Assembly (NCBI RefSeq): GCF_013315695.1
Contig: NZ_CP054353.1
Source: Escherichia coli
Lineage (GTDB): Bacteria; Pseudomonadota; Gammaproteobacteria; Enterobacterales; Enterobacteriaceae
DNA: 64,000 nt
Strand: one strand, 5' to 3'
The stretch's first letter is position 1. The number at the start of each line of letters is the position of its first letter. Position numbers and translations under genes: made by a program. Below, in pieces: positions 20,389 through 64,000 of this stretch. The notes beneath the pieces are model-generated. The model was not told the origin of the DNA, searched no databases, and saw only the letters and a list, made by a program, of their open reading frames with translations.

Positions 20389-20604
20389 AGTGTCTGCCTC
20401 CAGTGGTCAGTAATCTGGAGTGTAGGTAACCGCATTCACTCCGGCGGGAAGAATTTACAAACTGTGATCTCGCCGCGAAAACATCAATATTATCCATTTT
20501 GCTGTAACATAATTGCTTTAATTGTTAATAATATTTTGCAATCAAGTTATCATAATCAAACAACTTCACTTGTCAGCGACACCGCTTCGTTTTTAACATC
20601 GCTT

Positions 20605-21528
20605 ATGGAAAAAAATAGTCTGTTTAGTCAGCGCATCCGTTTGCGCCACCTTCATACATTCGTAGCTGTCGCACAACAAGGAACTTTGGGGCGCGCGGCT
20701 GAAACCCTTAATTTGAGTCAACCTGCGCTCTCTAAGACATTGAATGAACTGGAGCAGCTGACGGGCGCTCGCTTGTTTGAGCGTGGTCGTCAGGGGGCGC
20801 AACTTACCTTACCCGGCGAACAATTTTTAACGCATGCAGTCAGAGTTCTTGACGCCATCAACACTGCTGGACAGTCGCTTCATCGTAAAGAAGGTCTTAA
20901 TAATGATATCGTCAGGGTTGGTGCACTACCTACTGCGGCACTGGGGATATTACCTTCGGTTATAGGTCAGTTTCATCAGCAACAAAAAGAGACGACCTTG
21001 CAAGTTGCGACAATGAGTAACCCTATGATTCTGGCGGGTTTAAAAACCGGGGAAATCGATATCGGCATTGGTCGGATGTCAGATCCTGAACTGATGACCG
21101 GGCTTAATTACGAACTGCTGTTTCTTGAATCGCTGAAGCTGGTTGTCCGCCCCAATCATCCGCTACTTCAGGAGAACGTAACGCTAAGCCGGGTGCTGGA
21201 ATGGCCGGTCGTTGTATCACCAGAAGGCACTGCGCCACGCCAGCATTCAGATGCATTAGTGCAGAGCCAGGGATGTAAAATTCCTTCGGGTTGTATCGAA
21301 ACGCTGTCTGCTTCGCTATCTCGTCAACTTACGGTTGAATACGACTACGTGTGGTTTGTCCCTTCTGGCGCTGTAAAAGACGACCTGCGTCATGCCACGC
21401 TGGTGGCCCTGCCTGTTCCGGGACATGGTGCAGGCGAACCGATTGGAATACTGACCCGCGTAGATGCGACGTTCTCTTCTGGTTGCCAGTTGATGATTAA
21501 CGCTATTCGAAAATCAATGCCGTTCTGA
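20605..21528 (+). CDS. ydcI: LysR-family transcriptional regulator (307 aa)
   Basis: HTH LRHLHTFVAVAQQGTLGRAAETLNLSQPALSKTL; start set at MEKNSLF inside longer track ORF. Confidence 0.8.
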   Translation: MEKNSLFSQRIRLRHLHTFVAVAQQGTLGRAAETLNLSQPALSKTLNELEQLTGARLFERGRQGAQLTLPGEQFLTHAVRVLDAINTAGQSLHRKEGLNNDIVRVGALPTAALGILPSVIGQFHQQQKETTLQVATMSNPMILAGLKTGEIDIGIGRMSDPELMTGLNYELLFLESLKLVVRPNHPLLQENVTLSRVLEWPVVVSPEGTAPRQHSDALVQSQGCKIPSGCIETLSASLSRQLTVEYDYVWFVPSGAVKDDLRHATLVALPVPGHGAGEPIGILTRVDATFSSGCQLMINAIRKSMPF

Positions 21529-21566
21529 AAGGTGAAGGGATCTGTCGATCCCTTCCTTGAACATTT

Positions 21567-23207
21567 TCACACCGTAGCGAAACTAACTGGTTCACCCGCT
21601 CCGCGAGGTTCTGCCGACACAGTATGTTTGTTCAGACGGAATACGTCCACCGCCTCAGTTAATCGTGCCGCCTGTTCTTCAAGGGACACCGCCGCCGCTG
21701 AGGCCTCTTCTACCAGAGAAGCATTCTGTTGCGTCACCTTATCCATTTCAGAAATCGCCTGGCTAACCTGCGTTATGCCTCTACTTTGTTCATCCGAGGC
21801 GGCGGCGATTTCCTGCATGATATGTGTGACACTCGCGACGGCATCAACAATAGTGCTCATGGTTTTCCCTGCCGTTGCCACCTCATCCGACCCCAGGTCA
21901 ATTAACCTGACTGATTCACTGATCAAGCCTTCAATCTCTTTCGCCGCCTGAGCGCTGCGGCTTGCGAGTGTCCGTACTTCGCTGGCGACAACGGCAAATC
22001 CACGTCCTTGCTCACCCGCTCGCGCGGCTTCAACGGCAGCATTCAGTGCCAGAATATTCGTCTGGAAAGCAATACTGTTGATGACGGCGGTGATCTCGGA
22101 AATTTTCTTCGAACTCGTGGAGATAGCGCCCATCGTTTTTACTACACCGGAAACCGTCTGCCCGCCATCGCTGGCTTTAATAGAAGCCTCCTGCGCCAGT
22201 TTGCTGGCATGATGCGCGTTATCTGCATTCTGTTTCACCGTCGCAGTGAGTTGCTCCATGCTGGCGGCAGTTTGTTCAATTGCCGCCGCTTGTTCTTCGG
22301 TGCGAGATGAAAGGTCCGCATTGCCAGCGGAAATTTCGCTGGTGCCACGATAAATCTCTTCCGCGCCCTGTCGAACGGTCCCTACAGTCATCCCCAGTGA
22401 ATGCTGCATTTGCTGTAAATGACGACTTAAGCGACCGATTTCATTACGACCCGCCGGTTCATCATTCATCGTCAGATCGCCACTGGCGATTTTTTCAATC
22501 CGTTGTGCGGCATGTTGCAGTGGACGAATGACGATCCGACGTAGCACTATAAATGTTATCAGCGTCATGACCAGGGCAAGCACAAACGCGCCAATCATGA
22601 ACATCCCACCCAGGCGGGTGCGCTGATGGGCCAGTTCCGCCAGTTGGTTGGCTCTGGTGCTACGTATCTTAACGGCTTTGCTCAAAATATCGGTATAAGC
22701 ATTATCCAGCGGTCGGATCTGCTCACTTTCATGATTGATAATCGCTTCAAACATGCCATTTTTGGCATATTTCAACATCGGTTGCATACCCGTGATATAA
22801 GCCTGGAAGCGTTGATTTAATTCAGTGTCGAGGGCTTCATCAGCAGGTGTTTTCACCGACCGATTCTGATAAGCACGATAACCTTGCTGCGACTGTTTAA
22901 TCTCCGATTCGGCTTGCGCAATATTTCGCTTCATTGCTTCCATTTCCGCAATACGACTCGCTGCCCCGGCCTGAATCATATTGATCCGGGCTGAACGCAA
23001 AAAATCTGAACTGTTCGCTAACCCGGTCCGAATCTCAATCTCCGCAGTAACATCACGCTGATCGCGATCGGCCTGCCAGAGGAAATAGCCAGCCAGAGCA
23101 GAACTTAATGCGAATAGAACTAAGATACCGCCAAGAATGCAGGCAAATAACGGAACCAGCCTGATGTGATGCAAAAAACCTAATCGCTGTGAGGGAGTTG
23201 TATTCAT
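21567..23207 (-). CDS. trg: Methyl-accepting chemotaxis protein III (546 aa)
   Basis: MCP signalling domain with methylation-site sequence context; recognised Trg. Confidence 0.9.
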
Positions 23208-38597: not shown

Positions 38598-38652
38598 GGT
38601 GATGCTGCCAACTTACTGATTTAGTGTATGATGGTGTTTTTGAGGTGCTCCA

Positions 38653-38928
38653 GTGGCTTCTGTTTCTATCAGCTGTCCCTCCTGTTCAGCTACTGACGGG
38701 GTGGTGCGTAACGGCAAAAGCACCGCCGGACATCAGCGCTATCTCTGCTCTCACTGCCGTAAAACATGGCAACTGCAGTTCACTTACACCGCTTCTCAAC
38801 CCGGTACGCACCAGAAAATCATTGATATGGCCATGAATGGCGTTGGATGCCGGGCAACAGCCCGCATTATGGGCGTTGGCCTCAACACGATTTTACGTCA
38901 CTTAAAAAACTCAGGCCGCAGTCGGTAA
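38653..38928 (+). CDS. insA: IS1 InsA
   Basis: Translation identical to copy 1 InsA. Confidence 0.9.
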
Positions 38929-39350
38929 CCTCGCGCATACAGCCGGGCAGTGACGTCATCGTCTGCGCGGAAATGGACGAACAGTGGGGCTATGTCGGGG
39001 CTAAATCGCGCCAGCGCTGGCTGTTTTACGCGTATGACAGGCTCCGGAAGACGGTTGTTGCGCACGTATTCGGTGAACGCACTATGGCGACGCTGGGGCG
39101 TCTTATGAGCCTGCTGTCACCCTTTGACGTGGTGATATGGATGACGGATGGCTGGCCGCTGTATGAATCCCGCCTGAAGGGAAAGCTGCACGTAATCAGC
39201 AAGCGATATACGCAGCGAATTGAGCGGCATAACCTGAATCTGAGGCAGCACCTGGCACGGCTGGGACGGAAGTCGCTGTCGTTCTCAAAATCGGTGGAGC
39301 TGCATGACAAAGTCATCGGGCATTATCTGAACATAAAACACTATCAATAA
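38847..39350 (+). CDS. insB: IS1 InsB reading frame
   Basis: Translation identical to copy 1 InsB. Confidence 0.9.
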
Positions 39351-39505
39351 GTTGGAGTCATTACCACTTGAACCGATAATAAACGCAGAAATTCTATTTT
39401 GTAGCTCATTGTTGCCTCCTGTGTGAATTGTTCGAATCTACCAGGCTGCGATGAAAGAAGTCGTGTAGTAGAGAGCTATACCCGCAACAAGCGGGGCAGA
39501 CGTTC

Positions 39506-48571: not shown

Positions 48572-48838
48572 GGCATATAACCCGCGAAGAATAACGCATC
48601 ACTATTTAAATGTATAATTTTTATTTTGTATATGTCGCCAACAATATATTCACCAGACTTATTATCATTTCAGAAGAATTATTTGATTAAGGTTTTACTT
48701 AAGGCGTAACAAATAATATTTATCGTCTAACTGAACTTCTCCTTTAGGATGCTTTCACTCCCCGAAATGGGGATAAAAGGCAAGGTGATGCTGCCAACTT
48801 ACTGATTTAGTGTATGATGGTGTTTTTGAGGTGCTCCA

Positions 48839-49114
48839 GTGGCTTCTGTTTCTATCAGCTGTCCCTCCTGTTCAGCTACTGACGGGGTGGTGCGTAACGG
48901 CAAAAGCACCGCCGGACATCAGCGCTATCTCTGCTCTCACTGCCGTAAAACATGGCAACTGCAGTTCACTTACACCGCTTCTCAACCCGGTACGCACCAG
49001 AAAATCATTGATATGGCCATGAATGGCGTTGGATGCCGGGCAACAGCCCGCATTATGGGCGTTGGCCTCAACACGATTTTACGTCACTTAAAAAACTCAG
49101 GCCGCAGTCGGTAA
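48839..49114 (+). CDS. insA: IS1 InsA
   Basis: Translation identical to copy 1 InsA. Confidence 0.9.
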
Positions 49115-49536
49115 CCTCGCGCATACAGCCGGGCAGTGACGTCATCGTCTGCGCGGAAATGGACGAACAGTGGGGCTATGTCGGGGCTAAATCGCGCCAG
49201 CGCTGGCTGTTTTACGCGTATGACAGGCTCCGGAAGACGGTTGTTGCGCACGTATTCGGTGAACGCACTATGGCGACGCTGGGGCGTCTTATGAGCCTGC
49301 TGTCACCCTTTGACGTGGTGATATGGATGACGGATGGCTGGCCGCTGTATGAATCCCGCCTGAAGGGAAAGCTGCACGTAATCAGCAAGCGATATACGCA
49401 GCGAATTGAGCGGCATAACCTGAATCTGAGGCAGCACCTGGCACGGCTGGGACGGAAGTCGCTGTCGTTCTCAAAATCGGTGGAGCTGCATGACAAAGTC
49501 ATCGGGCATTATCTGAACATAAAACACTATCAATAA
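49033..49536 (+). CDS. insB: IS1 InsB reading frame
   Basis: Translation identical to copy 1 InsB. Confidence 0.9.
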
Positions 49537-49551
49537 GTTGGAGTCATTACC

Positions 49552-50357
49552 TCGATTACGGACGTAATTATGGCGTAATGTACGACATCGAAGGCTGGAC
49601 CGATATGCTGCCTGAATTTGGCGGTGACTCTTATACCAATGCAGACAACTTTATGACTGGTCGTGCCAACGGCGTCGCGACTTATCGTAATACTGATTTC
49701 TTCGGTCTGGTAAATGGTCTGAACTTCGCAGTGCAGTATCAAGGTAACAACGAAGGTGCCAGTAATGGTCAGGAAGGCACCAACAACGGACGTGATGTTC
49801 GCCATGAAAACGGTGACGGCTGGGGTCTTTCCACAACATATGATTTAGGCATGGGCTTTAGCGCTGGTGCGGCATACACCTCATCTGACCGCACCAATGA
49901 CCAGGTTAACCATACTGCGGCAGGTGGTGATAAAGCAGACGCGTGGACTGCTGGGCTAAAATACGATGCTAACAATATTTACCTGGCAACCATGTATTCA
50001 GAAACACGTAACATGACCCCGTTTGGCGACAGCGATTATGCAGTTGCGAACAAAACCCAGAACTTTGAAGTTACTGCACAGTACCAGTTTGATTTTGGTC
50101 TGCGTCCGGCAGTCTCTTTCCTGATGTCTAAAGGCCGTGACCTTCACGCTGCCGGTGGTGCAGACAACCCGGCAGGTGTTGATGATAAAGATCTGGTTAA
50201 ATACGCCGATGTTGGCGCGACTTACTATTTCAACAAAAATATGTCCACCTACGTTGACTATAAAATCAACCTGTTGGATGAAGATGACAGCTTCTACGCT
50301 GCCAACGGCATCTCTACCGATGATATTGTCGCTTTAGGTCTGGTTTATCAGTTCTAA
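49552..50357 (+). pseudogene. ompN: 3' portion of outer membrane porin gene truncated by IS1; ompN by synteny
   Basis: Frame open from the IS1 junction (..[15 protein letters not shown]..) to a porin-type C terminus LGLVYQF; N-terminal ~110 codons and promoter missing. Confidence 0.75.
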
Positions 50358-50365
50358 ATCCTCCT

Positions 50366-50389
50366 GCCCGCTGTTATGGCGGGCTTTTT
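50366..50389 (+). terminator. Rho-independent terminator after ompN remnant
   Basis: GCCCGC TGTTATG GCGGGC TTTTT. Confidence 0.65.
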
Positions 50390-50416
50390 CTGCTTATTCT
50401 TCCTCCTTTGATCTAA

Positions 50417-50932
<516 letters not shown>

Positions 50933-50939
50933 CACTAAC

Positions 50940-50964
50940 GCCCGCACATTGCTGCGGGCTTTTT
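50940..50964 (+). terminator. Rho-independent terminator after uspF
   Basis: GCCCGCA CATTGC TGCGGGC TTTTT. Confidence 0.65.
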
Positions 50965-51421
50965 GATTCATTTCGCAAATGTGCTGACATTTTCCCCTCT
51001 AATCCGTACCATACACGCCACAGTTTTTATATCAGATTTCTTATGCTGGGCGTTCCGGCATGACGCATACTCTTCTGATGCCATATAACGAATTGAGTCG
51101 CTTTTAAATGTCGCAAAATCAAGAAATTAGTAAGAAAGAACAATACAACCTGAACAAGTAAGGGCAAAAATCACAACTCTCTGACTCATAAGTATTTTAC
51201 TTATTTTTCAATGTGTTAAATATCATCAGCGACAACAATAAGCTACGATAACCCACTCTTTTTTTGCCCCTTTTTTGCCCCTTTTGCAGCGCTTTGCCCC
51301 ATTTTTGCCATCAACAATTTTCCTCATCAAGTCATTTCAAAGCCTAATAGGTGCCCTACTTTTTTCCTCAGTACCACGTCGCCAGCAGGAAACAACCTAA
51401 TCCCGGTTCGGATCTAAAATT

Positions 51422-51440
51422 GCTAATGATAATCATTTTC
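51422..51440 (+). promoter_or_regulatory. Fur box upstream of sitA
   Basis: GCTAATGATAATCATTTTC versus consensus GATAATGATAATCATTATC. Confidence 0.75.
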
Positions 51441-51462
51441 ATTTTGTATTGCTTATGCTATA

Positions 51463-51484
51463 AAACATAGCCGTTGCTATGTTT
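51463..51484 (+). promoter_or_regulatory. MntR operator upstream of sitA
   Basis: Perfect palindrome AAACATAGC CGTT GCTATGTTT, matching the MntR box form. Confidence 0.7.
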
Positions 51485-51516
51485 GTTCTAATTTTGCTCA
51501 CTATAGGTACTAAATT

Positions 51517-52431
51517 ATGTACTCAATAAAAAAAGTAACCATGCTCTTGGGGTGCCTCGCCCTCACCTGCTCGATCGCATTTCAGGCGAGTGCAACTGAA
51601 AAATTCAAGGTCATTACAACATTTACCATCATCGCAGATATGGCCAAAAACGTGGCTGGAGATGCTGCAGAAGTCTCATCCATAACCAAGCCCGGTGCAG
51701 AAATTCATGAGTATCAGCCTACCCCTGGCGATATTAAACGTGCGCAGGAGGCACAACTGATTCTCGCCAATGGTATGAATCTGGAATTGTGGTTCCAACG
51801 CTTTTACCAGCATCTTAATGGGGTTCCAGAAGTAATTGTCTCTTCGGGTGTGACGCCAGTAGGGATCACTGAAGGCCCCTATGAGGGCAAACCTAACCCC
51901 CATGCCTGGATGTCGCCAGATAATGCTCTGATTTACGTCGATAATATTCGTGATGCGTTGATAAAATACGATCCGGCAAATGCACAAACCTACCAACGTA
52001 ATGCCGATACTTATAAAGCCAAGATTACCCAAACCCTTGCCCCCCTGCGTAAGCAGATTGCTGAACTCCCTGAGAATCAGCGATGGATGGTCACCAGTGA
52101 AGGGGCTTTTTCTTATCTCGCACGCGATTTGGGGCTAAAAGAGCTTTATCTGTGGCCGATTAATGCCGATCAACAAGGCACGCCGCAGCAGGTACGTAAG
52201 GTTGTTGATATGGTGAAGAAAAATCATATCCCGGCAGTCTTTAGCGAGAGTACGATTTCCGATAAACCAGCGCGTCAGGTTGCGCGTGAAACCGGCGCGC
52301 ACTACGGCGGTGTACTCTATGTCGATTCCCTGAGCACAGAAAACGGCCCGGTACCTACGTATATCGACCTTCTGAAGGTTACTACCAGTACGCTGGTACA
52401 GGGAATTAAAGCCGGGAAAAGGGAGAAATAA
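51517..52431 (+). CDS. sitA: Periplasmic Mn/Fe-binding protein of Sit ABC transporter (304 aa)
   Basis: Signal peptide plus metal-binding lipoprotein-9-like sequence; first gene of a four-gene transporter operon. Confidence 0.85.
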
Positions 52432-53258
52432 TGATGCAATCTGCGGGCATTGTCGTTAATGATGTTACTGTCACCTGGCGTAACGGGCACACAGCACTGC
52501 GCGATGCATCCTTCACAGTACCAAGTGGATCTATTGCCGCTCTGGTTGGGGTAAACGGTTCCGGAAAATCGACGTTGTTTAAAGCGATTATGGGATTTGT
52601 GCGTCTGACCAGCGGAAAGATATCTGTTCTGGGTATTCCCACGCGACAGGCGCTACAGAAAAACCTGGTTGCCTACGTCCCTCAGTCAGAAGAGGTTGAC
52701 TGGTCATTTCCTGTACTAGTGGAAGATGTGGTGATGATGGGCCGCTATGGGCACATGGGTATGTTGCGTATAGCCAAAAAGAGGGATCGTCAGATTGTCA
52801 CCGATGCGCTGGAACGTGTCGATATGGTGGATTTTCGCCATCGACAAATCGGCGAGCTTTCCGGTGGACAAAAGAAACGCGTCTTTCTGGCGAGAGCGAT
52901 TGCACAGCAGGGTGATGTGATCCTGCTGGATGAACCTTTTACCGGCGTTGATGTGAAAACCGAAGCGAAAATCATCAGCCTGTTGAGGGAGTTACGCGCG
53001 GAAGGCAAGACGATGCTTGTCTCAACGCACAATCTCGGCTCAGTCACGACATTTTGCGATTATACGGTCATGGTCAAAGGCACCGTCCTGGCAAGCGGGC
53101 CGACAGACACCACTTTTACAGCCGAGAACCTGGAGCTGGCTTTTAGCGGCGTACTGCGCCATGTCACACTTAACGCCTCGGAAGAAAGCATTATTACTGA
53201 CGATGAACACCCTTTTGTGGCACATCGACCGTCAGCGGTGCAGAGGGAAGCAAGATGA
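52431..53258 (+). CDS. sitB: Sit transporter ATP-binding protein (275 aa)
   Basis: Walker [10 protein letters not shown], signature LSGGQKKR, Walker B ILLDEP. Confidence 0.85.
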
Positions 53259-54112
53259 ACGTGCTACTGGAACCCTTCAGCTATGAATATATGCTCAATG
53301 CGATGTGGGTCTCGGCGATGGTCGGCGGTCTCTGCGCTTTCCTGTCATGCTATCTGATGCTAAAAGGCTGGTCGCTGATTGGCGATGCGCTGTCGCACTC
53401 TATTGTCCCGGGTGTTGCGGGGGCATATATGCTGGGGCTTCCGTTTTCTCTGGGAGCCTTCTTTTCCGGCGGACTGGCAGCGGGCAGCATGCTGTTTCTT
53501 AACCAACGCACTCGCTTAAAAGAAGATGCCATCATCGGCCTGATCTTCTCCTCCTTTTTTGGCCTGGGGCTGTTTATGGTGTCATTGAACCCGACATCCG
53601 TGAACATTCAGACCATCGTCCTAGGCAATATTCTGGCAATCGATCCGGCGGATATCCTGCAACTCACTATCATTGGCATTCTCTCGATCATCGTGCTTTT
53701 TTTCAAATGGAAAGATCTTATGGTGACCTTTTTCGACGAGAATCACGCCCGTGCTATTGGATTGCATCCGGGCAGATTAAAAATCCTCTTCTTCACCCTG
53801 CTGTCGGTTTCGACCGTTGCGGCGCTGCAAACGGTTGGTGCCTTTCTGGTGATCTGTCTGGTGGTGACTCCCGGTGCAACAGCATGGTTGTTAACCGATC
53901 GTTTTCCCCGCCTGCTCATAATTGCTGTAACTATTGGCAGTGTAACCAGTTTCCTCGGCGCGTGGGTCAGTTACTTTCTGGACGGCGCGACAGGTGGAAT
54001 CATCGTGGTGGCGCAGACACTGCTGTTTCTTTTAGCATTTGTATTTGCGCCCACCCATGGGCTTTTGGCAAATCGTCGGCGTGCGCATAAAGCGCTGGAG
54101 GATCGCTCATGA
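53255..54112 (+). CDS. sitC: Sit transporter permease (285 aa)
   Basis: Multi-pass membrane ORF overlapping sitB end. Confidence 0.85.
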
Positions 54113-54966
54113 TGGCATTATTACTGGAGCCACTGCAGTTCACCTTTATGAGTCACGCACTGCTGATTTCACTGGTAGTTTCCATACCCTGTGCGCTGCT
54201 GTCGGTCTTTCTGGTCCTGAAAGGTTGGGCACTGATGGGTGACGCGATGAGTCATGCGGTTTTTCCTGGCATCGTGCTTGCCTGGATTCTGGGGTTACCT
54301 CTGGCTACAGGGGCATTTATCGCCGGAGTATTCTGCGCGGTGGCGACGGGATACCTGAAAGACAACAGCCGAATCAAGCAAGATACAGTGATGGGGATTG
54401 TTTTTTCTGGCATGTTTGCCGCAGGTCTGATCTTGTATATTGCAGTCAAACCAGACATACATCTTGACCATATTCTTTTCGGCGACATGCTCGGGGTAAC
54501 CATCGGCGATATAATCCAGACGATGATTATTGCCGGGCTGGTTACACTTGTTATTAGCGTAAAATGGCGGGATTTTTTGCTGTTCAGCTTTGATTATCAA
54601 CAGGCGCAGGTAAGCGGTTTGCATACGCGATGGCTGCATTATGGGCTGCTGTGCATGGTTTCCCTGACCATTGTGGCGACGCTGAAAGCAGTAGGTATCA
54701 TTCTCTCCATTTCTCTGCTCATTGCGCCTGGCGCCATTGCGGTACTCCTGACACAACGCTTTCATATTGCACTCCTACTGGCGACTGGCATATCGGTAAT
54801 AGTCTCAATGACTGGTGTTTGGCTGTCCTTTTTTATCGACAGCGCACCCGCTCCGACGATTGTCGTCTTATTCGCGGTTGTGTTCATCATGACGTTTACC
54901 GTTATCAGTTTCAACGCACGCACAAAGGGAAACGCTCATAGACAGGATCTGTTATCCCCCAATTAG
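54109..54966 (+). CDS. sitD: Sit transporter permease (285 aa)
   Basis: Multi-pass membrane ORF overlapping sitC end. Confidence 0.85.
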   Translation: MMALLLEPLQFTFMSHALLISLVVSIPCALLSVFLVLKGWALMGDAMSHAVFPGIVLAWILGLPLATGAFIAGVFCAVATGYLKDNSRIKQDTVMGIVFSGMFAAGLILYIAVKPDIHLDHILFGDMLGVTIGDIIQTMIIAGLVTLVISVKWRDFLLFSFDYQQAQVSGLHTRWLHYGLLCMVSLTIVATLKAVGIILSISLLIAPGAIAVLLTQRFHIALLLATGISVIVSMTGVWLSFFIDSAPAPTIVVLFAVVFIMTFTVISFNARTKGNAHRQDLLSPN

Positions 54967-55417
54967 CACAACATCCGAGGGCAGCATTGTCCGCTAGTAC
55001 ACTGCAGTCCAGAAAGTCATGGGCGGACGTTGGGAGGAGGCGCTAATCCTTTCATACAAAAAATATGTAAAATCAATAACGGCTGTAAATCATTCAATAC
55101 TCGCACTATCGGAAGTTCACCAGCCAGCCGCAGCACGTTCTTGCATACGACGTGTCTGCGGTTTCAACTTCACCAGTCCACCAATCACGATGGACAGTGC
55201 CAAGACAGCACTAGCAAAAACAGGAAATTAGCAGTCTCAGCAGAACACCGACCAGACGGTGAAGAAACAAAAAAGGATACGCAAAGGGGCCGCAGTTCCC
55301 GATTGATAAAAAAGCCAGCTTATGCGCTTTTTTTTCATGTATTATTAAGTATTGGTTAGCGTCTTTTTAATCAGAACTTTAAAGACAAGCCATTTGTAAG
55401 AAAACCGACAGATTCGG

Positions 55418-56233
55418 TTGACAAGCAGGAGTAATACTTTGGACATAAGAAAAGATTTGGAATCAGTAGCCCAATATATAAGTAGACTGTTATCGATAGG
55501 GTACGAATTTAGCCGTTTTGATAAAGACTGGGTCCATTTAAAAAATGAAGAGGATTTTCGTTTTATTTCAAGAATACCATTTGCAACACGGAATAAAGTG
55601 GAAGCAGTATATGCGGAAGGCAGAGATATGGCACTTTATATGTCTGATGAGTTACTATCCATTAATAGTGATTTCAGTAAATTTCCAACGTTGACAGCTA
55701 TTATCGAAAGATTCAAGGACACTTGGGTTTATGGTAATTATGATTCGGAAGTGCCAAATATAGCTAAAAAAACATGCGAAGAAAATGCAGTTCAGCTTTG
55801 GTCTGTAGAACAGATGTGTTCCTTATTCAAAAAGCAAGAACAACTATTAGCAGCAGTACGTATCACATTGCAGATGCTACAAGATAGTGACCTATACAAG
55901 ATGGAGAATGGTTTACCTCTTATGAAACAAGAAGCTAATATTCATGTCAGTGGAATTTCCGGTTCTAGTATCAATATACATTCTTCAGGTGCTACGGCAA
56001 CTACTACGACAAATTATAATGAGCCCACAATATTTAATGAAATGATTGAGGCAATAAAATCGAAAAACTTTGATGGCGCGACAGAATCACACCTTATAGA
56101 TAATGTACAGGCACTGGCAGCCAGTCACCAAAGCGGCTGTTTTAAAGAAGCATATAAGGACTTTATTAATAATGTATCTGCACACATTACAGTATTTACT
56201 CCATTTCTTGCTGGCATATCATCTTTACTATAA
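55418..56233 (+). CDS. Hypothetical protein, AT-rich orphan ORF (271 codons from TTG; a TTG at 55439 has better Shine-Dalgarno spacing)
   Basis: Long open frame in a visibly low-GC segment; AGGAG at 55427..55431; no family recognised; Ser/Thr-rich linker SGISGSSINIHSSGATATTTTN. Confidence 0.55.
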   Translation: MTSRSNTLDIRKDLESVAQYISRLLSIGYEFSRFDKDWVHLKNEEDFRFISRIPFATRNKVEAVYAEGRDMALYMSDELLSINSDFSKFPTLTAIIERFKDTWVYGNYDSEVPNIAKKTCEENAVQLWSVEQMCSLFKKQEQLLAAVRITLQMLQDSDLYKMENGLPLMKQEANIHVSGISGSSINIHSSGATATTTTNYNEPTIFNEMIEAIKSKNFDGATESHLIDNVQALAASHQSGCFKEAYKDFINNVSAHITVFTPFLAGISSLL

Positions 56234-56778
56234 AATAAGTGACAGATACATTAATACATAACGAAAAATCTTTTTAGCTACTCATTCATATCAATAGTGC
56301 CCTACCATAGGGCACATTATTCGTGGAACTCGTTTATGACAAAAGAATTTTGATGGTCTGCCTGATGCAACAGATATAATTCTGGGAGTGTTGAGTAAGA
56401 GTATTCACCGGCGCTCAACACAAATGCCAGCAAGCACGAGAAAGAGCAGGTAAGCCTGAGTGTTCAGGAAATGTTTGAAAAGGCTAATATGTGGCTGGTT
56501 TCAGATTAAACGCCTTGAACCGTCATATTACTTAAGTACAATCCGCCTAGACTAGCAATCATTCAATAGTAGCACTATCGAGCGCTCGCCAGTCGAGCGC
56601 AATCATGCTCCTTGCATACGGCGTGCAGCATATCACAAAACGATTACGCCATGACGGACTGCAGGCTACTCAATATCTGGCTCGATTAGCGTATTGGCAT
56701 GATTTAACAGACCCCGGCGCTTATTCCCAGCAACCTGAAGCGGCACCTCTTCCTGTGTTGCGTTTACAACTCCCTTTT

Positions 56779-57087
56779 TCACCCACGATTAACCAACAGC
56801 CAGACCAGCAGACAAGCCACCACCGGCACAGAAAAATCCATCAGGCTTGCCACATCCCACACGCGCGGATCAAAACCACCCCACCACGGCATATTCATAC
56901 GCTTGCCATGCCCGAACATTTCAATCCAGCGATATTCTGCCTGGGTATGTTCACGAGCAATGAAGAACGTACAACCGGCTATCGCCCCGTAAGCCCAGTT
57001 TCCGGTAAAAAGACCAACCAGTACCTGCGCAGCCACAGCACAAAGTGCATGAAGGAAAGGTGTTATATCCATTTTCATCCTACCCAA
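56779..57087 (-). CDS. Hypothetical small membrane protein (102 aa; may start at MKMDITPF, 57075)
   Basis: Two hydrophobic segments (AVAAQVLVGLF..., VPVVACLLVWLLV); overlapping plus-strand 161-aa ORF is low-complexity. Confidence 0.5.
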   Translation of the reverse strand: MGRMKMDITPFLHALCAVAAQVLVGLFTGNWAYGAIAGCTFFIAREHTQAEYRWIEMFGHGKRMNMPWWGGFDPRVWDVASLMDFSVPVVACLLVWLLVNRG

Positions 57088-57148
57088 TAAAACGAGGCGC
57101 TCGGCCCCTTAATATTATTTAGACGCAAGCGTCGGTAATGACTCCAAC

Positions 57149-57652
57149 TTATTGATAGTGTTTTATGTTCAGATAATGCCCGATGACTTTGTCATGCAGC
57201 TCCACCGATTTTGAGAACGACAGCGACTTCCGTCCCAGCCGTGCCAGGTGCTGCCTCAGATTCAGGTTATGCCGCTCAATTCGCTGCGTATATCGCTTGC
57301 TGATTACGTGCAGCTTTCCCTTCAGGCGGGATTCATACAGCGGCCAGCCATCCGTCATCCATATCACCACGTCAAAGGGTGACAGCAGGCTCATAAGACG
57401 CCCCAGCGTCGCCATAGTGCGTTCACCGAATACGTGCGCAACAACCGTCTTCCGGAGCCTGTCATACGCGTAAAACAGCCAGCGCTGGCGCGATTTAGCC
57501 CCGACATAGCCCCACTGTTCGTCCATTTCCGCGCAGACGATGACGTCACTGCCCGGCTGTATGCGCGAGGTTACCGACTGCGGCCTGAGTTTTTTAAGTG
57601 ACGTAAAATCGTGTTGAGGCCAACGCCCATAATGCGGGCTGTTGCCCGGCAT
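57149..57652 (-). CDS. insB: IS1 InsB reading frame
   Basis: Translation identical to copy 1 InsB. Confidence 0.9.
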
Positions 57653-57846
57653 CCAACGCCATTCATGGCCATATCAATGATTTTCTGGTGCGTACCGGGT
57701 TGAGAAGCGGTGTAAGTGAACTGCAGTTGCCATGTTTTACGGCAGTGAGAGCAGAGATAGCGCTGATGTCCGGCGGTGCTTTTGCCGTTACGCACCACCC
57801 CGTCAGTAGCTGAACAGGAGGGACAGCTGATAGAAACAGAAGCCAC
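57571..57846 (-). CDS. insA: IS1 InsA
   Basis: Translation identical to copy 1 InsA. Confidence 0.9.
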
Positions 57847-57925
57847 TGGAGCACCTCAAAAACACCATCATACACTAAATCAGTAAGTTGGCAGCATCAC
57901 CCCCGGCGTTAAGGGGAGAGATAAG

Positions 57926-58060
57926 ATGGTGCATTACGAAGTAGTTCAGTATTTGATGGATTGTTGCGGTATCACTTACAACCAGGCTGTGCAGGCTTTA
58001 CGCAGCAACGCCTGGGATCTCTGGCAGGCAGAAGTCGCTATACGTAGCAACAAGATGTGA
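57926..58060 (+). CDS. ydaG: Rac prophage small protein, YdaG-like (44 aa)
   Basis: Hand-translated MVHYEVVQYLMDCCGITYNQAVQALRSNAWDLWQAEVAIRSNKM; name assigned from length and position. Confidence 0.5.
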   Translation: MVHYEVVQYLMDCCGITYNQAVQALRSNAWDLWQAEVAIRSNKM

Positions 58061-58070
58061 GATTCGCAAA

Positions 58071-58226
58071 ATGCAAAAAATCGACCTCGGCAACAACGAA
58101 TCCCTGGTGTGCGGCGTGTTCCCCAACCAGGATGGAACGTTCACTGCCATGACGTATACCAAAAGCAAAACATTTAAAACCGAAACTGGTGCGCGCCGAT
58201 GGTTGGAGAAGCACACAGTAAGCTAA
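58071..58226 (+). CDS. ydaF: Rac prophage small protein, YdaF-like (51 aa)
   Basis: Hand-translated MQKIDLGNNESLVCGVFPNQDGTFTAMTYTKSKTFKTETGARRWLEKHTVS. Confidence 0.5.
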   Translation: MQKIDLGNNESLVCGVFPNQDGTFTAMTYTKSKTFKTETGARRWLEKHTVS

Positions 58227-58711
58227 CGATTAAAACGTCTACTCCTGCTGTTCCAGAATAACTTCATAAAATGGGAGTATTTTTCGGTGACGAGATAATA
58301 AGAACAGTTTGCGCTATCACTCTGATGTTGAATGATGCCCTTCCGTTCTAATTTTTTCATAACCGGGTTACGGCAAGGAGAAGTGATAATAAGATTTCCT
58401 GTTTTAAGGAAATCTTTAAATACAGCGATTTCTTTCTCAGATAAACGAAGCAATACTCGTTGCTCTGGTAGTAATGAATAATGCTTTTGAATATGTGCTC
58501 GCAATCTTGAGAAGGAAATGGCGACCACGAAAGAAAAGGCAAAAACGATAATCTGAAAGAGCCAAGGTATTTCAGTATAAGCATTGAATGCGACAGTAAA
58601 CTCTTTCGGTATCAGCCAGAGAGTGAGACCAAAAATGATAATCGTATACATAAGTCTTTCGAGTGGCTCGTTAGCAAAAAGTTTCAATAATGGAGTAGAT
58701 ACATCCAACAT
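58223..58711 (-). CDS. sieB: Superinfection exclusion protein B, Rac prophage (162 aa)
   Basis: Start set at MLDVSTPLLKLFANEPLERLMYTIIIFGL within longer track ORF. Confidence 0.8.
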   Translation of the reverse strand: MLDVSTPLLKLFANEPLERLMYTIIIFGLTLWLIPKEFTVAFNAYTEIPWLFQIIVFAFSFVVAISFSRLRAHIQKHYSLLPEQRVLLRLSEKEIAVFKDFLKTGNLIITSPCRNPVMKKLERKGIIQHQSDSANCSYYLVTEKYSHFMKLFWNSRSRRFNR

Positions 58712-59151
58712 ATCAATAACTCTCAACTGTAAGGGTATTGAAATGTTAACACAAGCTCTCGCTGTAGGGGTATAGCCGAGACCACCGAAGCCCGGAGGTG
58801 GTGAAATAAAACCGGGCACAACACGAAGGCGCATTTCCGATATCCATAAAGAGTCGGTCTTGTCTGTTAAATTTAAATGGTGGGAGTGCGCCTCCGGTTG
58901 TAAATAACGACATTGCTGTGTGTAGTCCTGGCGGCATCAGTTTTTTCTTGAAGTTCGGCTGATGTCCGCCCTTTTTTAAGTGAATTTTGTGATGCGGTGA
59001 ATGCGGCTAAGCGCACGTGGCACAGTTAAAAGTCATGTTAGTCCTTATTGGTTTGGGTGGGAAAGCCGACTGTAATTGTTAACTGGTTGCAGTCACCTGG
59101 AGGCACCAGGCACCGCATCAACAAAGTTCATTTGTAAAAATGGAGATAATT

Positions 59152-59373
59152 ATGATTGCACATCACTTCGGAACTGATGAAATACCACGTCAGTGTGTGA
59201 CTCCTGGCGATTATGTTCTTCATGAAGGCCGGACATATATTGCCTCGGCAAACAATATTAAAAAGCGAAAACTATATATTCGTAACCTGACCACAAAAAC
59301 ATGCATTACTGACCGCATGATTAAAGTCTTCCTCGGTCGTGATGGTTTACCTGTAAAGGCGGAGTCATGGTGA
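59152..59373 (+). CDS. kilR: Cell-division inhibitor KilR, Rac prophage (73 aa)
   Basis: [38 protein letters not shown]... Confidence 0.8.
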
Positions 59374-59543
59374 TGACTAAGAAAATAAAATGTGCTTACC
59401 ACCTTTGCAAAAAAGACGTTGAAGAAAGCAAAGCTATTGAAAGAATGCTTCACTTCATGCACGGGATTTTATCAAAAGACGAACCGAGAAAATATTGCAG
59501 TGAATCTTGTGCCGAAAAAGACCAGATGGCACATGAACTTTAA
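59373..59543 (+). CDS. ydaE: Rac prophage small zinc-finger-like protein YdaE (56 aa)
   Basis: Hand-translated [56 protein letters not shown]; start overlaps kilR stop. Confidence 0.6.
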   Translation: MTKKIKCAYHLCKKDVEESKAIERMLHFMHGILSKDEPRKYCSESCAEKDQMAHEL

Positions 59544-59617
59544 TTAATTGACTATTCGAAACTGAATTTATGCCAGAAATGGCAGGTATTCGCTCAACCT
59601 TAATTAAGGAGAAAAAC

Positions 59618-59893
59618 ATGATTACCAATTATGAAGCCACTGTTGTAACTACCGATGACATTGTTCACGAGGTGAATCTGGAAGGAAAGCGCATTGGCTA
59701 CGTAATTAAAACAGAAAATAAAGAAACCCCATTCACTGTGGTTGATATCGATGGTCCATCAGGCAACGTAAAAACACTTGATGAAGGTGTCAAAAAAATG
59801 TGCCTGGTGCATATCGGAAAGAATCTGCCCGCAGAAAAAAAAGCCGAATTTCTGGCAACTCTAATTGCAATGAAATTAAAAGGTGAAATCTGA
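59618..59893 (+). CDS. racC: Rac prophage protein RacC (91 aa)
   Basis: Start set at MITNYEATVVTTDDIVHEVNLEGKRIGYVIK. Confidence 0.75.
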   Translation: MITNYEATVVTTDDIVHEVNLEGKRIGYVIKTENKETPFTVVDIDGPSGNVKTLDEGVKKMCLVHIGKNLPAEKKAEFLATLIAMKLKGEI

Positions 59894-59994
59894 AAGAAAT
59901 AGCCTGCGTATGGCGCAGGCTATGAACAGTGTGTATCCGGCAAGATCATTCACTGAACAAAACGAATTTTAATCTGAGTTGAGGTTAAAAAACA

Positions 59995-62595
59995 ATGAGC
60001 ACAAAACCACTCTTCCTGTTACGGAAAGCGAAAAAATCATCCGGTGAACCTGACGTCGTCCTGTGGGCAAGCAACGATTTTGAATCGACCTGTGCCACTC
60101 TGGACTACCTGATCGTTAAGTCAGGTAAAAAACTGAGCAGCTATTTTAAAGCTGTTGCCACGAATTTTCCTGTCGTTAATGACCTGCCCGCTGAAGGTGA
60201 GATCGATTTTACCTGGAGTGAACGCTATCAACTCAGCAAAGACTCCATGACATGGGAACTAAAACCGGGAGCAGCACCAGACAACGCTCACTATCAAGGC
60301 AATACCAACGTCAACGGCGAAGACATGACTGAGATTGAGGAGAATATGCTACTCCCAATTTCTGGCCAGGAACTGCCCATTCGTTGGCTTGCTCAACACG
60401 GCAGCGAAAAACCGGTAACGCACGTTTCACGCGACGGACTCCAGGCATTACACATTGCTCGGGCTGAAGAACTACCGGCTGTTACTGCCCTGGCTGTTTC
60501 CCACAAAACCAGCCTGCTCGACCCGCTGGAAATTCGCGAACTCCACAAACTGGTTCGTGACACTGACAAAGTTTTCCCTAATCCTGGTAATTCAAACCTG
60601 GGACTGATAACTGCTTTTTTCGAAGCATACCTGAACGCTGACTACACCGATCGAGGACTGCTGACAAAAGAGTGGATGAAGGGTAATCGTGTTTCACACA
60701 TCACTCGCACGGCTTCCGGTGCTAATGCTGGCGGCGGAAACCTCACCGATCGCGGCGAAGGTTTCGTACACGATCTGACGTCACTGGCGCGCGACGTAGC
60801 CACTGGCGTACTGGCCCGTTCAATGGATCTGGACATCTATAACCTTCATCCGGCACACGCTAAACGCATTGAGGAAATTATCGCTGAAAATAAACCGCCC
60901 TTTTCTGTTTTCCGCGACAAATTCATCACCATGCCTGGCGGGCTGGATTATTCCCGCGCCATCGTGGTTGCGTCCGTAAAAGAAGCACCAATTGGGATCG
61001 AGGTCATCCCCGCGCACGTCACTGAATATCTGAACAAAGTACTGACTGAAACCGATCATGCCAACCCTGATCCGGAAATCGTGGATATTGCCTGCGGTCG
61101 CTCCTCTGCCCCGATGCCGCAGCGAGTAACAGAAGAAGGAAAACAGGATGATGAAGAAAAACCGCAACCATCTGGAACAACGGCAGTTGAACAGGGAGAG
61201 GCTGAAACAATGGAACCGGACGCAACTGAACATCATCAGGACACGCAGCCGCTGGATGCTCAGTCACAGGTAAATTCTATTGATGCGAAATATCAGGAAC
61301 TGCGGGCAGAACTCCATGAAGCCCGGAAAAACATTCCATCAAAAGATCCTGTCGATGCCGATAAATTGCTTGCTGCATCACGTGGTGAATTTGTTGACGG
61401 AATTAGCGACCCGAACGATCCGAAATGGGTAAAGGGGATCCAGACTCGCGATTGTGTGTACCAGAACCAGCCAGAAACGGAAAAAACCAGCCCGGATATG
61501 AATCAACCTGAGCCAGTAGTGCAACAGGAACCGGAAATAGCCTGCAATGCCTGCGGCCAGACTGGCGGGGATAACTGCCCTGACTGTGGTGCGGTGATGG
61601 GCGACGCAACATACCAGGAAACATTCGATGAAGAGAGTCAGGTTGAAGCTAAGGAAAATGATCCGGAGGAAATGGAAGGCGCTGAACATCCGCACAATGA
61701 GAATGCTGGCAGCGATCCGCATCGCGATTGCAGTGATGAAACTGGCGAAGTCGCAGATCCCGTAATCGTAGAAGACATAGAGCCAGGTATTTATTACGGA
61801 ATTTCGAATGAGAATTACCACGCGGGTCCCGGTGTCAGTAAGTCTCAGCTCGATGACATTGCTGATACTCCGGCACTATATTTGTGGCGTAAAAATGCCC
61901 CCGTTGACACCACAAAGACAAAAACGCTCGATTTAGGAACCGCTTTCCACTGCCGGGTACTTGAACCGGAAGAATTCAGTAACCGCTTTATCGTAGCACC
62001 TGAATTTAACCGCCGTACAAACGCCGGAAAAGAAGAAGAGAAAGCGTTTCTGATGGAATGCGCAAGCACAGGAAAAACAGTTATCACTGCGGAAGAAGGC
62101 CGGAAAATTGAACTCATGTATCAAAGCGTTATGGCTTTGCCGCTGGGGCAATGGCTTGTTGAAAGCGCCGGACACGCTGAATCATCAATTTACTGGGAAG
62201 ATCCTGAAACAGGAATTTTGTGTCGGTGCCGTCCGGACAAAATTATCCCTGAATTTCACTGGATCATGGACGTGAAAACTACGGCGGATATTCAACGATT
62301 CAAAACCGCTTATTACGACTACCGCTATCACGTTCAGGATGCATTCTACAGTGACGGTTATGAAGCACAGTTTGGAGTGCAGCCAACTTTCGTTTTTCTG
62401 GTTGCCAGCACAACTATTGAATGCGGACGTTATCCGGTTGAAATTTTCATGATGGGCGAAGAAGCAAAACTGGCAGGTCAACAGGAATATCACCGCAATC
62501 TGCGAACCCTGTCTGACTGCCTGAATACCGATGAATGGCCAGCTATTAAGACATTATCACTGCCCCGCTGGGCTAAGGAATATGCAAATGACTAA
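59995..62595 (+). CDS. recE: Exodeoxyribonuclease VIII (RecE), full-length 866 aa
   Basis: 866-aa ORF with acidic central region and C-terminal nuclease domain; directly followed by overlapping recT. Confidence 0.9.
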
Positions 62596-63397
62596 GCAAC
62601 CACCAATCGCAAAAGCCGATCTGCAAAAAACTCAGGGAAACCGTGCACCAGCAGCAGTTAAAAATAGCGACGTGATTAGTTTTATTAACCAGCCATCAAT
62701 GAAAGAGCAACTGGCAGCAGCTCTTCCACGCCATATGACGGCTGAACGTATGATCCGTATCGCCACCACAGAAATTCGTAAAGTTCCGGCGTTAGGAAAC
62801 TGTGACACTATGAGTTTTGTCAGTGCGATCGTACAGTGTTCACAGCTCGGACTTGAGCCAGGTAGCGCCCTCGGTCATGCATATTTACTGCCTTTTGGTA
62901 ATAAAAACGAAAAGAGCGGTAAAAAGAACGTTCAGCTAATCATTGGCTATCGCGGCATGATTGATCTGGCTCGCCGTTCTGGTCAAATCGCCAGCCTGTC
63001 AGCCCGTGTTGTCCGTGAAGGTGACGAGTTTAGCTTCGAATTTGGCCTTGATGAAAAGTTAATACACCGCCCGGGAGAAAACGAAGATGCCCCGGTTACC
63101 CACGTCTATGCTGTCGCAAGACTGAAAGACGGAGGTACTCAGTTTGAAGTTATGACGCGCAAACAGATTGAGCTGGTGCGCAGCCTGAGTAAAGCTGGTA
63201 ATAACGGGCCGTGGGTAACTCACTGGGAAGAAATGGCAAAGAAAACGGCTATTCGTCGCCTGTTCAAATATCTGCCCGTATCAATTGAGATCCAGCGTGC
63301 AGTATCAATGGATGAAAAGGAACCACTGACAATCGATCCTGCAGATTCCTCTGTATTAACCGGGGAATACAGTGTAATCGATAATTCAGAGGAATAA
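62588..63397 (+). CDS. recT: Single-strand annealing protein RecT (269 aa)
   Basis: Start set at [28 protein letters not shown]; overlaps recE stop (ATGACTAA). Confidence 0.9.
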
Positions 63398-63453
63398 TTC
63401 AGCCTGGCGGTGTAATGCACCGCCAACTTGAAATATTTTTTATGAGAAAAATT

Positions 63454-63648
63454 ATGAGATATGACAATGTTAAACCATGTCCATTTTGTGGTTGTCCATC
63501 AGTAACGGTGAAAGTCATTTCAGGATATTACCGAGCGAAGTGTAACGGATGCGAATCCCGAACCGGTTATGGTGGAAGTGAAAAAGAAGCACTCGAAAGA
63601 TGGAATAAACGAACCACTGGAAATAATAACGGAGGTGTTCATGTATAA
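63454..63648 (+). CDS. ralR: Restriction alleviation protein RalR/Lar (64 aa)
   Basis: Start set at MRYDNVKPCPFCGCPSVTVKV; Cys-rich motif. Confidence 0.7.
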   Translation: MRYDNVKPCPFCGCPSVTVKVISGYYRAKCNGCESRTGYGGSEKEALERWNKRTTGNNNGGVHV

Positions 63649-63829
63649 AATTACCGCCACTATTGAAAAGGAAGGTGGCACTCCTACTAACTGGACAAGA
63701 TATTCAAAATCTAAACTAACGAAATCAGAATGCGAAAAAATGCTCTCAGGTAAAAAAGAAGCAGGCGTTTCCAGAGAGCAGAAAGTAAAACTGATAAATT
63801 TTAATTGCGAGAAACTTCAGTCCTCGTGA
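63641..63829 (+). CDS. ydaC: Rac prophage protein YdaC (62 aa)
   Basis: Start set at MYKITATIEKEGGTPTNW, overlapping ralR stop. Confidence 0.6.
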   Translation: MYKITATIEKEGGTPTNWTRYSKSKLTKSECEKMLSGKKEAGVSREQKVKLINFNCEKLQSS

Positions 63830-63928
63830 ATTGCATTGTATTCAAATTAAAACTTCATAGCTGATTATTAATAATCAACATCGGGCGTCAATTTCAGTCT
63901 AACATTGGCGCCTGCCAGAGGTGATGCG

Positions 63929-64000
63929 ATGGCACAAGTAATCTTTAATGAAGAGTGGATGGTTGAATACGGCCTGATGCTTCGCACTGGTCTGGGGGCC
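63929..64000 (+). CDS. xisR: Rac prophage excisionase-like protein, 5' partial (runs off window end)
   Basis: ATG at 63929: MAQVIFNEEWMVEYGLMLRTGLGA... Confidence 0.5.
   Translation, partial: MAQVIFNEEWMVEYGLMLRTGLGA

Follow-up and report, generated by a model that had tools for sequence, protein, structure and literature searches.

An intact Rac prophage recE-recT pair beside an IS1-associated deletion in Escherichia coli, probably preserved by youth rather than by demonstrable host selection

The recE-recT pair at 59995-63397 in the 64,000-nucleotide stretch of Escherichia coli DNA analyzed here (the window) is the canonical, already known recE-recT pair of the Rac prophage. The best explanation of the locus, to which we give a probability of roughly 75%, is that this canonical pair lost its control region in a deletion marked by IS1, and that its reading frames are intact through youth and not through demonstrable host selection.

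recE (exonuclease VIII) was found at 59995-62595 on the + strand, where it encodes 866 aa from an ATG start, with the Shine-Dalgarno sequence GAGG (59982-59985, + strand) located 9 nt 5' of the ATG. recT, encoding the single-strand annealing protein, follows on the same strand at 62588-63397. Its open reading frame spans 62531-63397, and the ATG at 62588 gives a protein of 269 aa. The two genes share the 8 nt ATGACTAA (62588-62595, + strand), which contain the recT ATG and end with TAA, the stop codon of recE (62593-62595). A Shine-Dalgarno sequence for recT, AAGGA (62575-62579, + strand), lies within recE, separated by 8 nt from the ATG at 62588, while its distance to an alternative in-frame ATG at 62582 is just 2 nt; the start at 62588 is favoured because of this spacing. 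K-12 and seven further genomes that were inspected are annotated with the identical 8-nt overlap; no annotated allele among those inspected lacked it, not even the divergent recT of strain EC14. With the recT start placed over the recE stop and the ribosome-binding site inside recE, the pair has the structure looked for in coupled genes, and its overlap is consistent with translational coupling. The initial annotation had described two full-length genes with overlapping stop and start codons that implied such coupling; the coordinates, lengths and overlap were all found to be exact against the list of open reading frames, and the gene identities were confirmed by Pfam domains and alignment to K-12.

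RecE carries an N-terminal Exonuc_VIII domain (PF06630; aa 2-178, E=6e-98, 327 bits against a cutoff of 25) and a C-terminal PDDEXK/DUF3799 domain (PF12684; aa 615-850, E=4e-28), the PD-(D/E)XK nuclease domain extending from about aa 588/605 to 866. The middle region of RecE is poorly constrained. RecT contains the RecT domain (PF03837; aa 53-244, E=1e-55) and distantly matches the LiRecT structure 7UB2, and its gene is located directly 3' of that of the partner exonuclease, the arrangement sought in a RecT annealase. By homology, RecE is a predicted 5'->3' dsDNA exonuclease and RecT its predicted single-strand annealing partner.

Open reading frames could nevertheless encode proteins inactivated by missense changes. 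The pair differs from that of K-12 MG1655 by 9 nucleotides in 3403, with four nonsynonymous and four synonymous differences in recE and one synonymous difference in recT. RecE therefore deviates from the K-12 protein at four residues, I429V, D451N, A455D and V614I (window/K-12; 862/866 identical, 99.5%). Inactivation is effectively refuted by the positions of these residues and by the remainder of both proteins. RecT is identical to that of K-12 MG1655 at 269/269 residues. Most of the six sequences compared carry A455 and V614, D451 also occurs in EC14, and residues 429-455 fall in a weakly constrained region dispensable for recombination. The segment encoding the crystallised nuclease domain (aa 605-866; 61807-62592, + strand) matches PDB 3H4R with E=4e-180, and differs only at V614 (I in the crystal), at P658 (where L is the crystal construct's own) and at the first residue of the construct. 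All catalytic motif residues, H652, D748 (in RPD), D759 and K761 (in MDVK), are present, and alignment to K-12 and 3H4R revealed no inactivating substitution among them. We take D748, D759 and K761 to be the D...D-x-K of the PD-(D/E)XK motif. Earlier work describes the part played by His-652 and the conserved active site of RecE, and relates the fold and active site of the nuclease to those of the lambda Red exonuclease (PMC11611040).

The pair lies in a Rac remnant of about 14 kb that also carries sitABCD as cargo and apparently extends from a ttcC' attR fragment to ttcA. The ttcC' fragment (51108-51158, + strand) forms the right end of the remnant and is followed by sitABCD (51517-54966, + strand) and by an IS1 element (57134-57901, - strand). 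From 57902 to the end of the window at 64000 the DNA is 99.67% identical over 6.1 kb to the ydaG-xisR part of K-12 Rac, and the gene order ydaG-ydaF-sieB-kilR-ydaE-racC-recE-recT-ralR-rcbA-xisR is that of K-12. Ahead of recE are ydaG (57926-58060, +), ydaF (58071-58226, +), sieB (58223-58711, -), the intact gene for the FtsZ inhibitor KilR (59152-59373, +), intact ydaE (59373-59543, +) and racC (59618-59893, +), which has no differences from K-12 racC and is annotated in a genome that is 100% identical to the window over 49552-64000. Behind recT are the toxin gene ralR (63454-63648, +; Pfam Lar), the RalA antitoxin sRNA (63647-63825, -; Rfam RalA, 225 bits), rcbA/DUF1187 (63641-63829, +; 62 aa, Pfam DUF1187) and the start of xisR (63929-64000, +), which is cut by the window end. 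The rcbA stop codon occurs seven codons earlier than in K-12, and the 62-aa form is annotated in other strains too. The attL/ttcA end is outside the window; in the genome with 100% identity, xisR is followed by intR and ttcA. Next to another IS1, 362 bp are also missing from the 5' end of ompN in the window.

The prophage had been called eroded, which holds to an even greater degree than for K-12 Rac: racR, ydaS/T and the replication, lysis and structural genes are gone. The IS1 at 57134-57901 has no target-site duplication, its IRL end is 24 bp upstream of the ydaG ATG, and homology to K-12 begins exactly at the IS1 end (57902). It marks a deletion of racR, ydaS/T, the RacR operators, the early-left promoter and everything rightward. 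The early-left promoter was identified in K-12 from sequence only; the candidate, TTGACA-17-TATAGT (11/12 consensus match), is located about 170-200 bp upstream of ydaG in K-12 (K-12 coordinates around 1,419,626-1,419,654) and is also found in strain GN06156. In both genomes two TAGGC-n3-GCCTA palindromes, the published RacR operator consensus (PMC9638921), flank this promoter downstream of racR, and three further sites are located between racR and ydaS, giving five sites against a chance expectation of 0.5-0.7. The window contains no match to TAGGC-n3-GCCTA and also lacks the promoter string. Promoter, operators and repressor have been lost, no RacR-operator pair controls early promoters here, and the locus is a remnant and not a regulated prophage. 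A deletion that removes racR would presumably be viable only if it also disabled the promoters from which the toxic genes ydaS/T and kilR are transcribed, and a breakpoint at the position of this IS1 would disable them along with the loss of racR.

Judged by the signals that are missing, recET is most likely silent in situ, or transcribed through weak conditional read-through only. In K-12, titration of RacR increases expression of ydaG, ydaF, kilR, ydaE, racC and ydaC 40-70-fold (PMC6765115, PMC11014345), the rac recombination genes show zygotic induction (PMC5917428), and activation of recET requires sbcA mutations (PMC9504249). A crude consensus scan, in which the total number of hits equalled the chance expectation, found no + strand promoter-like site matching at least 9/12 positions between 56800 and 61852. 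The possibility that a hybrid promoter directed outward from IS1 arose at the junction with ydaG was considered and rejected; the sole -35-like sequence, TTGGCA (57889-57894), has no -10 at 16-18 nt, and transcription of insA points away from ydaG. Weak or non-canonical promoters, transcription outward from IS1 or read-through from sitABCD are possible sources of transcripts reaching recET.

The only literature-supported + strand transcription start remaining upstream of recET is that of the KilS sRNA, located about 1.1 kb before recE. The equivalent of KilS and the kilR 5' UTR was found at 58880-58976 (+ strand) with a 1-nt deletion relative to K-12, and carries its own terminator consisting of a stem-loop and a T-run. 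KilS has an independent transcription start (PMC8175672) and kilR is under Rho/NusG control (PMC5793797). Some transcript from the retained start could reach recET, provided that it escapes Rho/NusG-dependent termination and reads past the terminator of KilS. Just 3' of the racC stop codon is a hairpin of 10-11 bp that is rich in G+C (59899-59923, + strand). The 114-nt racC-recE spacer folds with -31.6 kcal/mol (z=-4.1) and the hairpin is identical in K-12. We do not claim it as an intrinsic terminator directed at recE, as its T-run is on the opposite strand and there is no U-tract on the recE strand.

The same loss of RacR might be read in the opposite direction, as a natural sbcA-like activation in which the IS1 junction or the KilS/kilR promoter makes RecET constitutive and active. 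recE can be switched on by classical sbcA alleles or by Tn5 inserted upstream of the gene, and IS1 ends are able to form hybrid promoters. Repressor and operators are indeed gone here and the KilS start is kept, but the deletion took the early-left promoter itself, the junction TTGGCA lacks a suitably spaced -10, the scan gave no + strand candidate up to recE, and insA is directed away from ydaG. KilS transcription moreover stops at its own terminator, kilR is silenced by Rho/NusG, and strong constitutive transcription of the arm is hard to reconcile with an intact kilR, the expression of which is toxic. Taken together, we find such activation quite improbable. A milder form is equally doubtful, namely that the remnant is a natural sbcA-like state with low or stress-conditional transcription that would supply RecET without lethal levels of KilR, either from the KilS/kilR start under relaxed Rho/NusG termination or by read-out from IS1 or read-through from sitABCD. 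If true, this clinical lineage would gain a RecA-independent end-joining or annealing pathway that would aid recombination with incoming phages and linear DNA.

The canonical pair with a deleted control region remains the preferred reading, and the age of the deletion accounts for its open reading frames. The recET DNA is 100% identical to the copy in strain GN06156 and to that of four other genomes. Rac of GN06156 is far more complete and has retained late genes as well as racR and the early-left promoter. Over the 6.1-kb arm the window and GN06156 differ at four positions in total, none of them within recET; therefore zero substitutions have accumulated in the pair since the deletion. Relative to K-12, dS was 0.006 for the Rac arm against 0.090 for flanking core genes. 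The recET reading frames are intact as a result of a point-mutation age of essentially zero and not of demonstrable host selection.

The initial annotation had taken the intactness of RecET in an otherwise eroded prophage as a sign that it is still being selected for, and this was found to be unsupported for the present copy. Current host selection would act through RecA/RecBCD-independent repair or recombination, or through recombination with incoming phages. With zero substitutions relative to a repressor-bearing Rac copy, nothing has yet been tested by selection. All ten neighbouring left-arm reading frames are equally open, including that of the toxic kilR, and in a neutral simulation with nine random substitutions both recE and recT stayed open in 67% of cases. 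The IS1 deletion halted before the left arm, which speaks for host selection, but in the sister sit-carrying Rac remnant of AF10 an IS1 deletion takes the 5' third of recE. One more genome is truncated likewise, and other genomes have a 5'-truncated or internally deleted recE. The absence of the native promoter also argues against selection in the host.

Carriage among genomes can be read both ways. At least 80% of recET was found in about 1635 of 5426 complete E. coli genomes (about 30%), which is near the 1827 that carry intR-xisR and would fit host selection. The block farther from the int end was found in 1366 genomes, and retention thus falls with distance from the int end, from 1827 over 1635 to 1366. 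Preferential retention of recET was rejected, since its count lies between those of the two neighbouring blocks.

The dN/dS ratio from the window and K-12 on recET alone was uninformative, as the substitutions were too few, and the set was extended with four more alleles and the flanking core genes. Family-level dN/dS was 0.04-0.14 for the RecE nuclease domain and 0.13-0.18 for RecT, so that purifying selection is clear at family level only, in the nuclease domain and RecT (dN/dS ≈0.04-0.18). These low values count in favour of host selection, but phages can explain them as well; deposited phage genomes carry recET at 99.1% identity, and the family-level selection may be acting there. Some benefit of recET exists somewhere, for phage or host. 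For the present copy we regard current host selection as unlikely, and youth as the explanation to be preferred.

The significance of the locus beyond annotation is small, as the Rac recET genes are among the best-studied recombination modules. Where a prophage decays through large IS-mediated deletions and what is left of it has gained no point mutations, an intact reading frame cannot be taken as a sign of selection. The pair had also been suggested for recombineering in this host. The proteins are those of the K-12 RecET system used in ET recombineering, and to that extent the suggestion stands, but in situ the native promoter is lost; use of the chromosomal copy in this lineage would therefore require an added promoter. 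Since there is no RacR to repress it, promoter insertion alone might suffice.

Among known systems, the pair closely resembles that of K-12 Rac, with proteins of 866 and 269 aa, the 8-nt overlap, an identical RecT and a 99.5% identical RecE, the same ydaG-to-xisR flanks and apparently the same chromosomal site at ttcA/ttcC'. K-12 Rac differs in that racR, ydaS/T, the early-left promoter and the RacR operators are all retained, together with some 15 kb of additional prophage DNA, whereas the window has an IS1-associated deletion and sitABCD in the right arm. The lambda Red genes exo-bet likewise encode an exonuclease and an annealase and belong to a lambdoid early-left operon, that of pL, in which they follow a repressor-controlled promoter and have a kil gene close by. 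They differ in that RecE is a tetramer of 866 aa with a large N-terminal extension while the lambda exonuclease is a trimer, and in that the Red-beta annealase family is not that of RecT; moreover no gam equivalent is evident beside recET, and the pL-like promoter is deleted in the window. Similar in layout are the sit-carrying Rac remnants of E01, AF10 and MSB1_4I, which share the order uspF-ttcC'-sitABCD ... recT-ralR-xisR-intR-ttcA at 98.8-100% identity. E01 still has the immunity region, replication genes, Q and tail-fibre genes and in AF10 the IS1 deletion extends into recE, whereas the breakpoint in MSB1_4I is located 24 bp before ydaG, as in the window.

The recE (59995..62595, + strand, 866 aa) and recT (62588-63397, + strand, 269 aa) genes have exactly the coordinates and lengths reported in the initial annotation, as judged from the ORF table and the sequence. 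The recE stop codon TAA is located at 62593-62595, and the recT ATG at 62588 lies 5 nt upstream of it in a different frame, giving an 8-nt overlap that reads ATGACTAA (62588-62595). The reading frame that contains the recT start is open between 62531 and 63397, and a Shine-Dalgarno sequence AAGGA (62575-62579) precedes the ATG by 8 nt.

By Pfam the first protein carries Exonuc_VIII (aa 2-178) and a PD-(D/E)XK-like domain (aa 615-850), and the second belongs to the RecT family. The recET DNA differs from that of K-12 MG1655 by nine nucleotides in 3403. RecT is identical between the two, while RecE has four substitutions (window/K-12: I429V, D451N, A455D, and V614I). RecE aa 605-866 correspond to the nuclease domain of RecE solved by crystallography (3H4R, E=4e-180). 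This domain alone can genetically substitute for full-length RecE, and the N-terminal domain is without known function (PMC11611040). The check proposed earlier for inactivating substitutions in the nuclease active site was negative, since His652, Asp748, Asp759, and Lys761 were all retained (for His-652 and the conserved active site see PMC11611040). The recE/recT pair is genuine, correctly named and already known.

Homology to K-12 Rac is limited to window 57902-64000, from ydaG to xisR (99.67%), with an IS1 copy directly to the left (57134-57901). Between this IS1 and the iron/manganese transporter operon sitABCD (51517-54966) are two hypothetical genes with a frameshifted dinI-like gene between them. 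The sitABCD operon is part of the Rac remnant and sits a short way inward of the ttcC' attR fragment (51108-51158), beyond which uspF and then a 5'-truncated ompN are found. Strain MSB1_4I has the same sequence, at 100% identity, across the whole of window 49552-64000. In MSB1_4I xisR is followed by an intR annotated as frameshifted (20595-21828 of the MSB1_4I sequence, L003, just past the window end) and then by ttcA. If the frameshift holds, the remnant is probably unable to excise. The description of the prophage as eroded was borne out, as about 14 kb is left and the erosion is greater than in K-12.

The sitABCD cargo was also found in relatives such as strain E01, in a less eroded Rac that still has genes for immunity and replication, Q, and tail-fibre genes. 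RalR and RalA form an intact type I toxin-antitoxin pair (63454-63829 region; Rfam RalA, 225 bits). Four identical IS1 copies are present in the 64 kb (24-793, 38598-39366, 48784-49551, and 57134-57901), each marking a site that is rearranged with respect to K-12. The copy at 38598 stands in place of about 31 kb of K-12 DNA (feaR, tynA, the paa operon, ydbA, and part of ydbD), and the copy at 48784 cuts the ompN 5' end, with 362 bp of the otherwise identical MSB1_4I absent from the window.

In K-12 and in GN06156, a strain with a more complete Rac, the racR-ydaG interval contains a promoter, TTGACA-17-TATAGT, that is close to consensus (11/12 match) and reads toward recET. A TAGGC-n3-GCCTA palindrome stands on either side of it (11627-11668 of the K-12 Rac sequence, L001), and three more are located between racR and ydaS, i.e., five sites against 0.5-0.7 expected by chance. 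The palindrome equals the consensus published for the RacR operator (PMC9638921); in the RacR literature examined, operators are described only for the racR-ydaS interval (three sites), and no published mapping of the racR-ydaG promoter was found. To us this promoter looks like the OL/PL equivalent (early-left operator and promoter) of Rac. Such a reading fits the 40-70-fold increase of ydaG, ydaF, kilR, ydaE, racC, and ydaC upon RacR titration (PMC6765115; PMC11014345), the zygotic induction shown by the rac recombination genes (PMC5917428), and the requirement of sbcA mutations for recET activation (PMC9504249). The window contains neither a RacR operator nor the TTGACA-17-TATAGT promoter. 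The IS1 IRL end adjoins the sequence 24 bp before the ydaG ATG without a target-site duplication, a pattern that points to a deletion associated with IS1 and not to simple insertion. What is particular to this strain is that the recET pair has lost its native promoter as well as its repressor.

The insA gene of IS1 is oriented away from ydaG, and no + strand promoter-like site was found from IS1 to recE at the threshold of a weakly informative scan. The single surviving + strand start with literature support is that of KilS/the kilR 5' UTR (PMC8175672), which maps to ~58880 in the window. A stem-loop and T-run of its own terminate KilS, and Rho/NusG keep kilR silent (PMC5793797). Relative to K-12, the KilS/5' UTR sequence (58880-58976) has a 1-nt deletion in a T-run at 58940, and a substitution is found at 58977, directly after the KilS 3' end. 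The racC-recE gap holds a strong hairpin without a U-tract, a perfect 10-11-bp G+C-rich structure directly 3' of racC (59899-59923) that is kept in K-12. With its T-run on the minus strand, the hairpin resembles a terminator of antisense transcripts, not one that acts on the recET strand. With operators and promoter gone, and considering the KilS terminator and the silencing of kilR, recET is most likely silent or subject to weak conditional read-through. Strong constitutive transcription of the left arm (ydaG to xisR) is unlikely because kilR is toxic and intact. A deletion removing racR would be viable only if the ydaS/T and kilR promoters were disabled as well, and the breakpoint found here would disable them.

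The initial annotation took the intactness of recET as a sign of ongoing selection; for the window copy this was found unsupported. The recET DNA is 100% identical to the copies in five genomes, one of them GN06156, in which racR, PL, lysis, and terminase genes of Rac are still present; the 6.1-kb left arm differs from that of GN06156 at four positions, none of them in recET. Synonymous divergence from K-12 is 0.006 for the Rac arm and 0.090 for ten flanking core genes, which means that the arm and K-12 Rac have a far more recent common ancestor than the chromosomes. The dN/dS of the arm relative to K-12 is 0.36, from only 16 substitutions. Nor is recET alone in being intact, as all ten left-arm ORFs are open. 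The sole ORF-length difference from K-12 is in rcbA, where a T/A difference at 63827 shortens the ORF by seven codons (62 aa vs 69 aa); annotations of other strains examined, e.g., GN06156, MSB1_4I, and O157:H7 OK1, likewise give 62 aa. When nine random substitutions were simulated, both recE and recT stayed open in 67% of runs. Among complete genomes (n=5426) intR-xisR was retained in 1827, recET in 1635, and ydaF-racC in 1366, a simple gradient without a peak at recET. A separate IS1 deletion has removed the recE 5' part in AF10 and one other genome with a sister sitABCD-carrying Rac remnant, and in further genomes recE is 5'-truncated or internally deleted. Intactness of this copy is not evidence of selection.

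At the level of the family, purifying selection is real: dN/dS is 0.04-0.14 in the RecE nuclease domain and 0.13-0.18 in RecT, in a comparison that takes in a strongly diverged recT allele; constraint is weak in the RecE middle region (aa 236-587, 0.2-2). The STEC005 recE has an unrelated block in place of aa 97-235, and EC14 carries a diverged recT (dS 0.93). The family-level selection may well act in functional phages, since recET of 99.1% identity is present in deposited phage genomes and many ttcA-integrated relatives keep immunity and replication modules. The N-terminal and middle part of recE (nt 306-1772, window 60300-61766) is 80-90% identical to genes whose annotation reads 'exonuclease' or '3'-5' exonuclease'; these occur in most genomes that have no full-length recET of the Rac type, and in Stx2a phages. 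The recE module thus appears to be shared, as a mosaic, with genes of other lambdoid prophages whose annotation names another type of nuclease.
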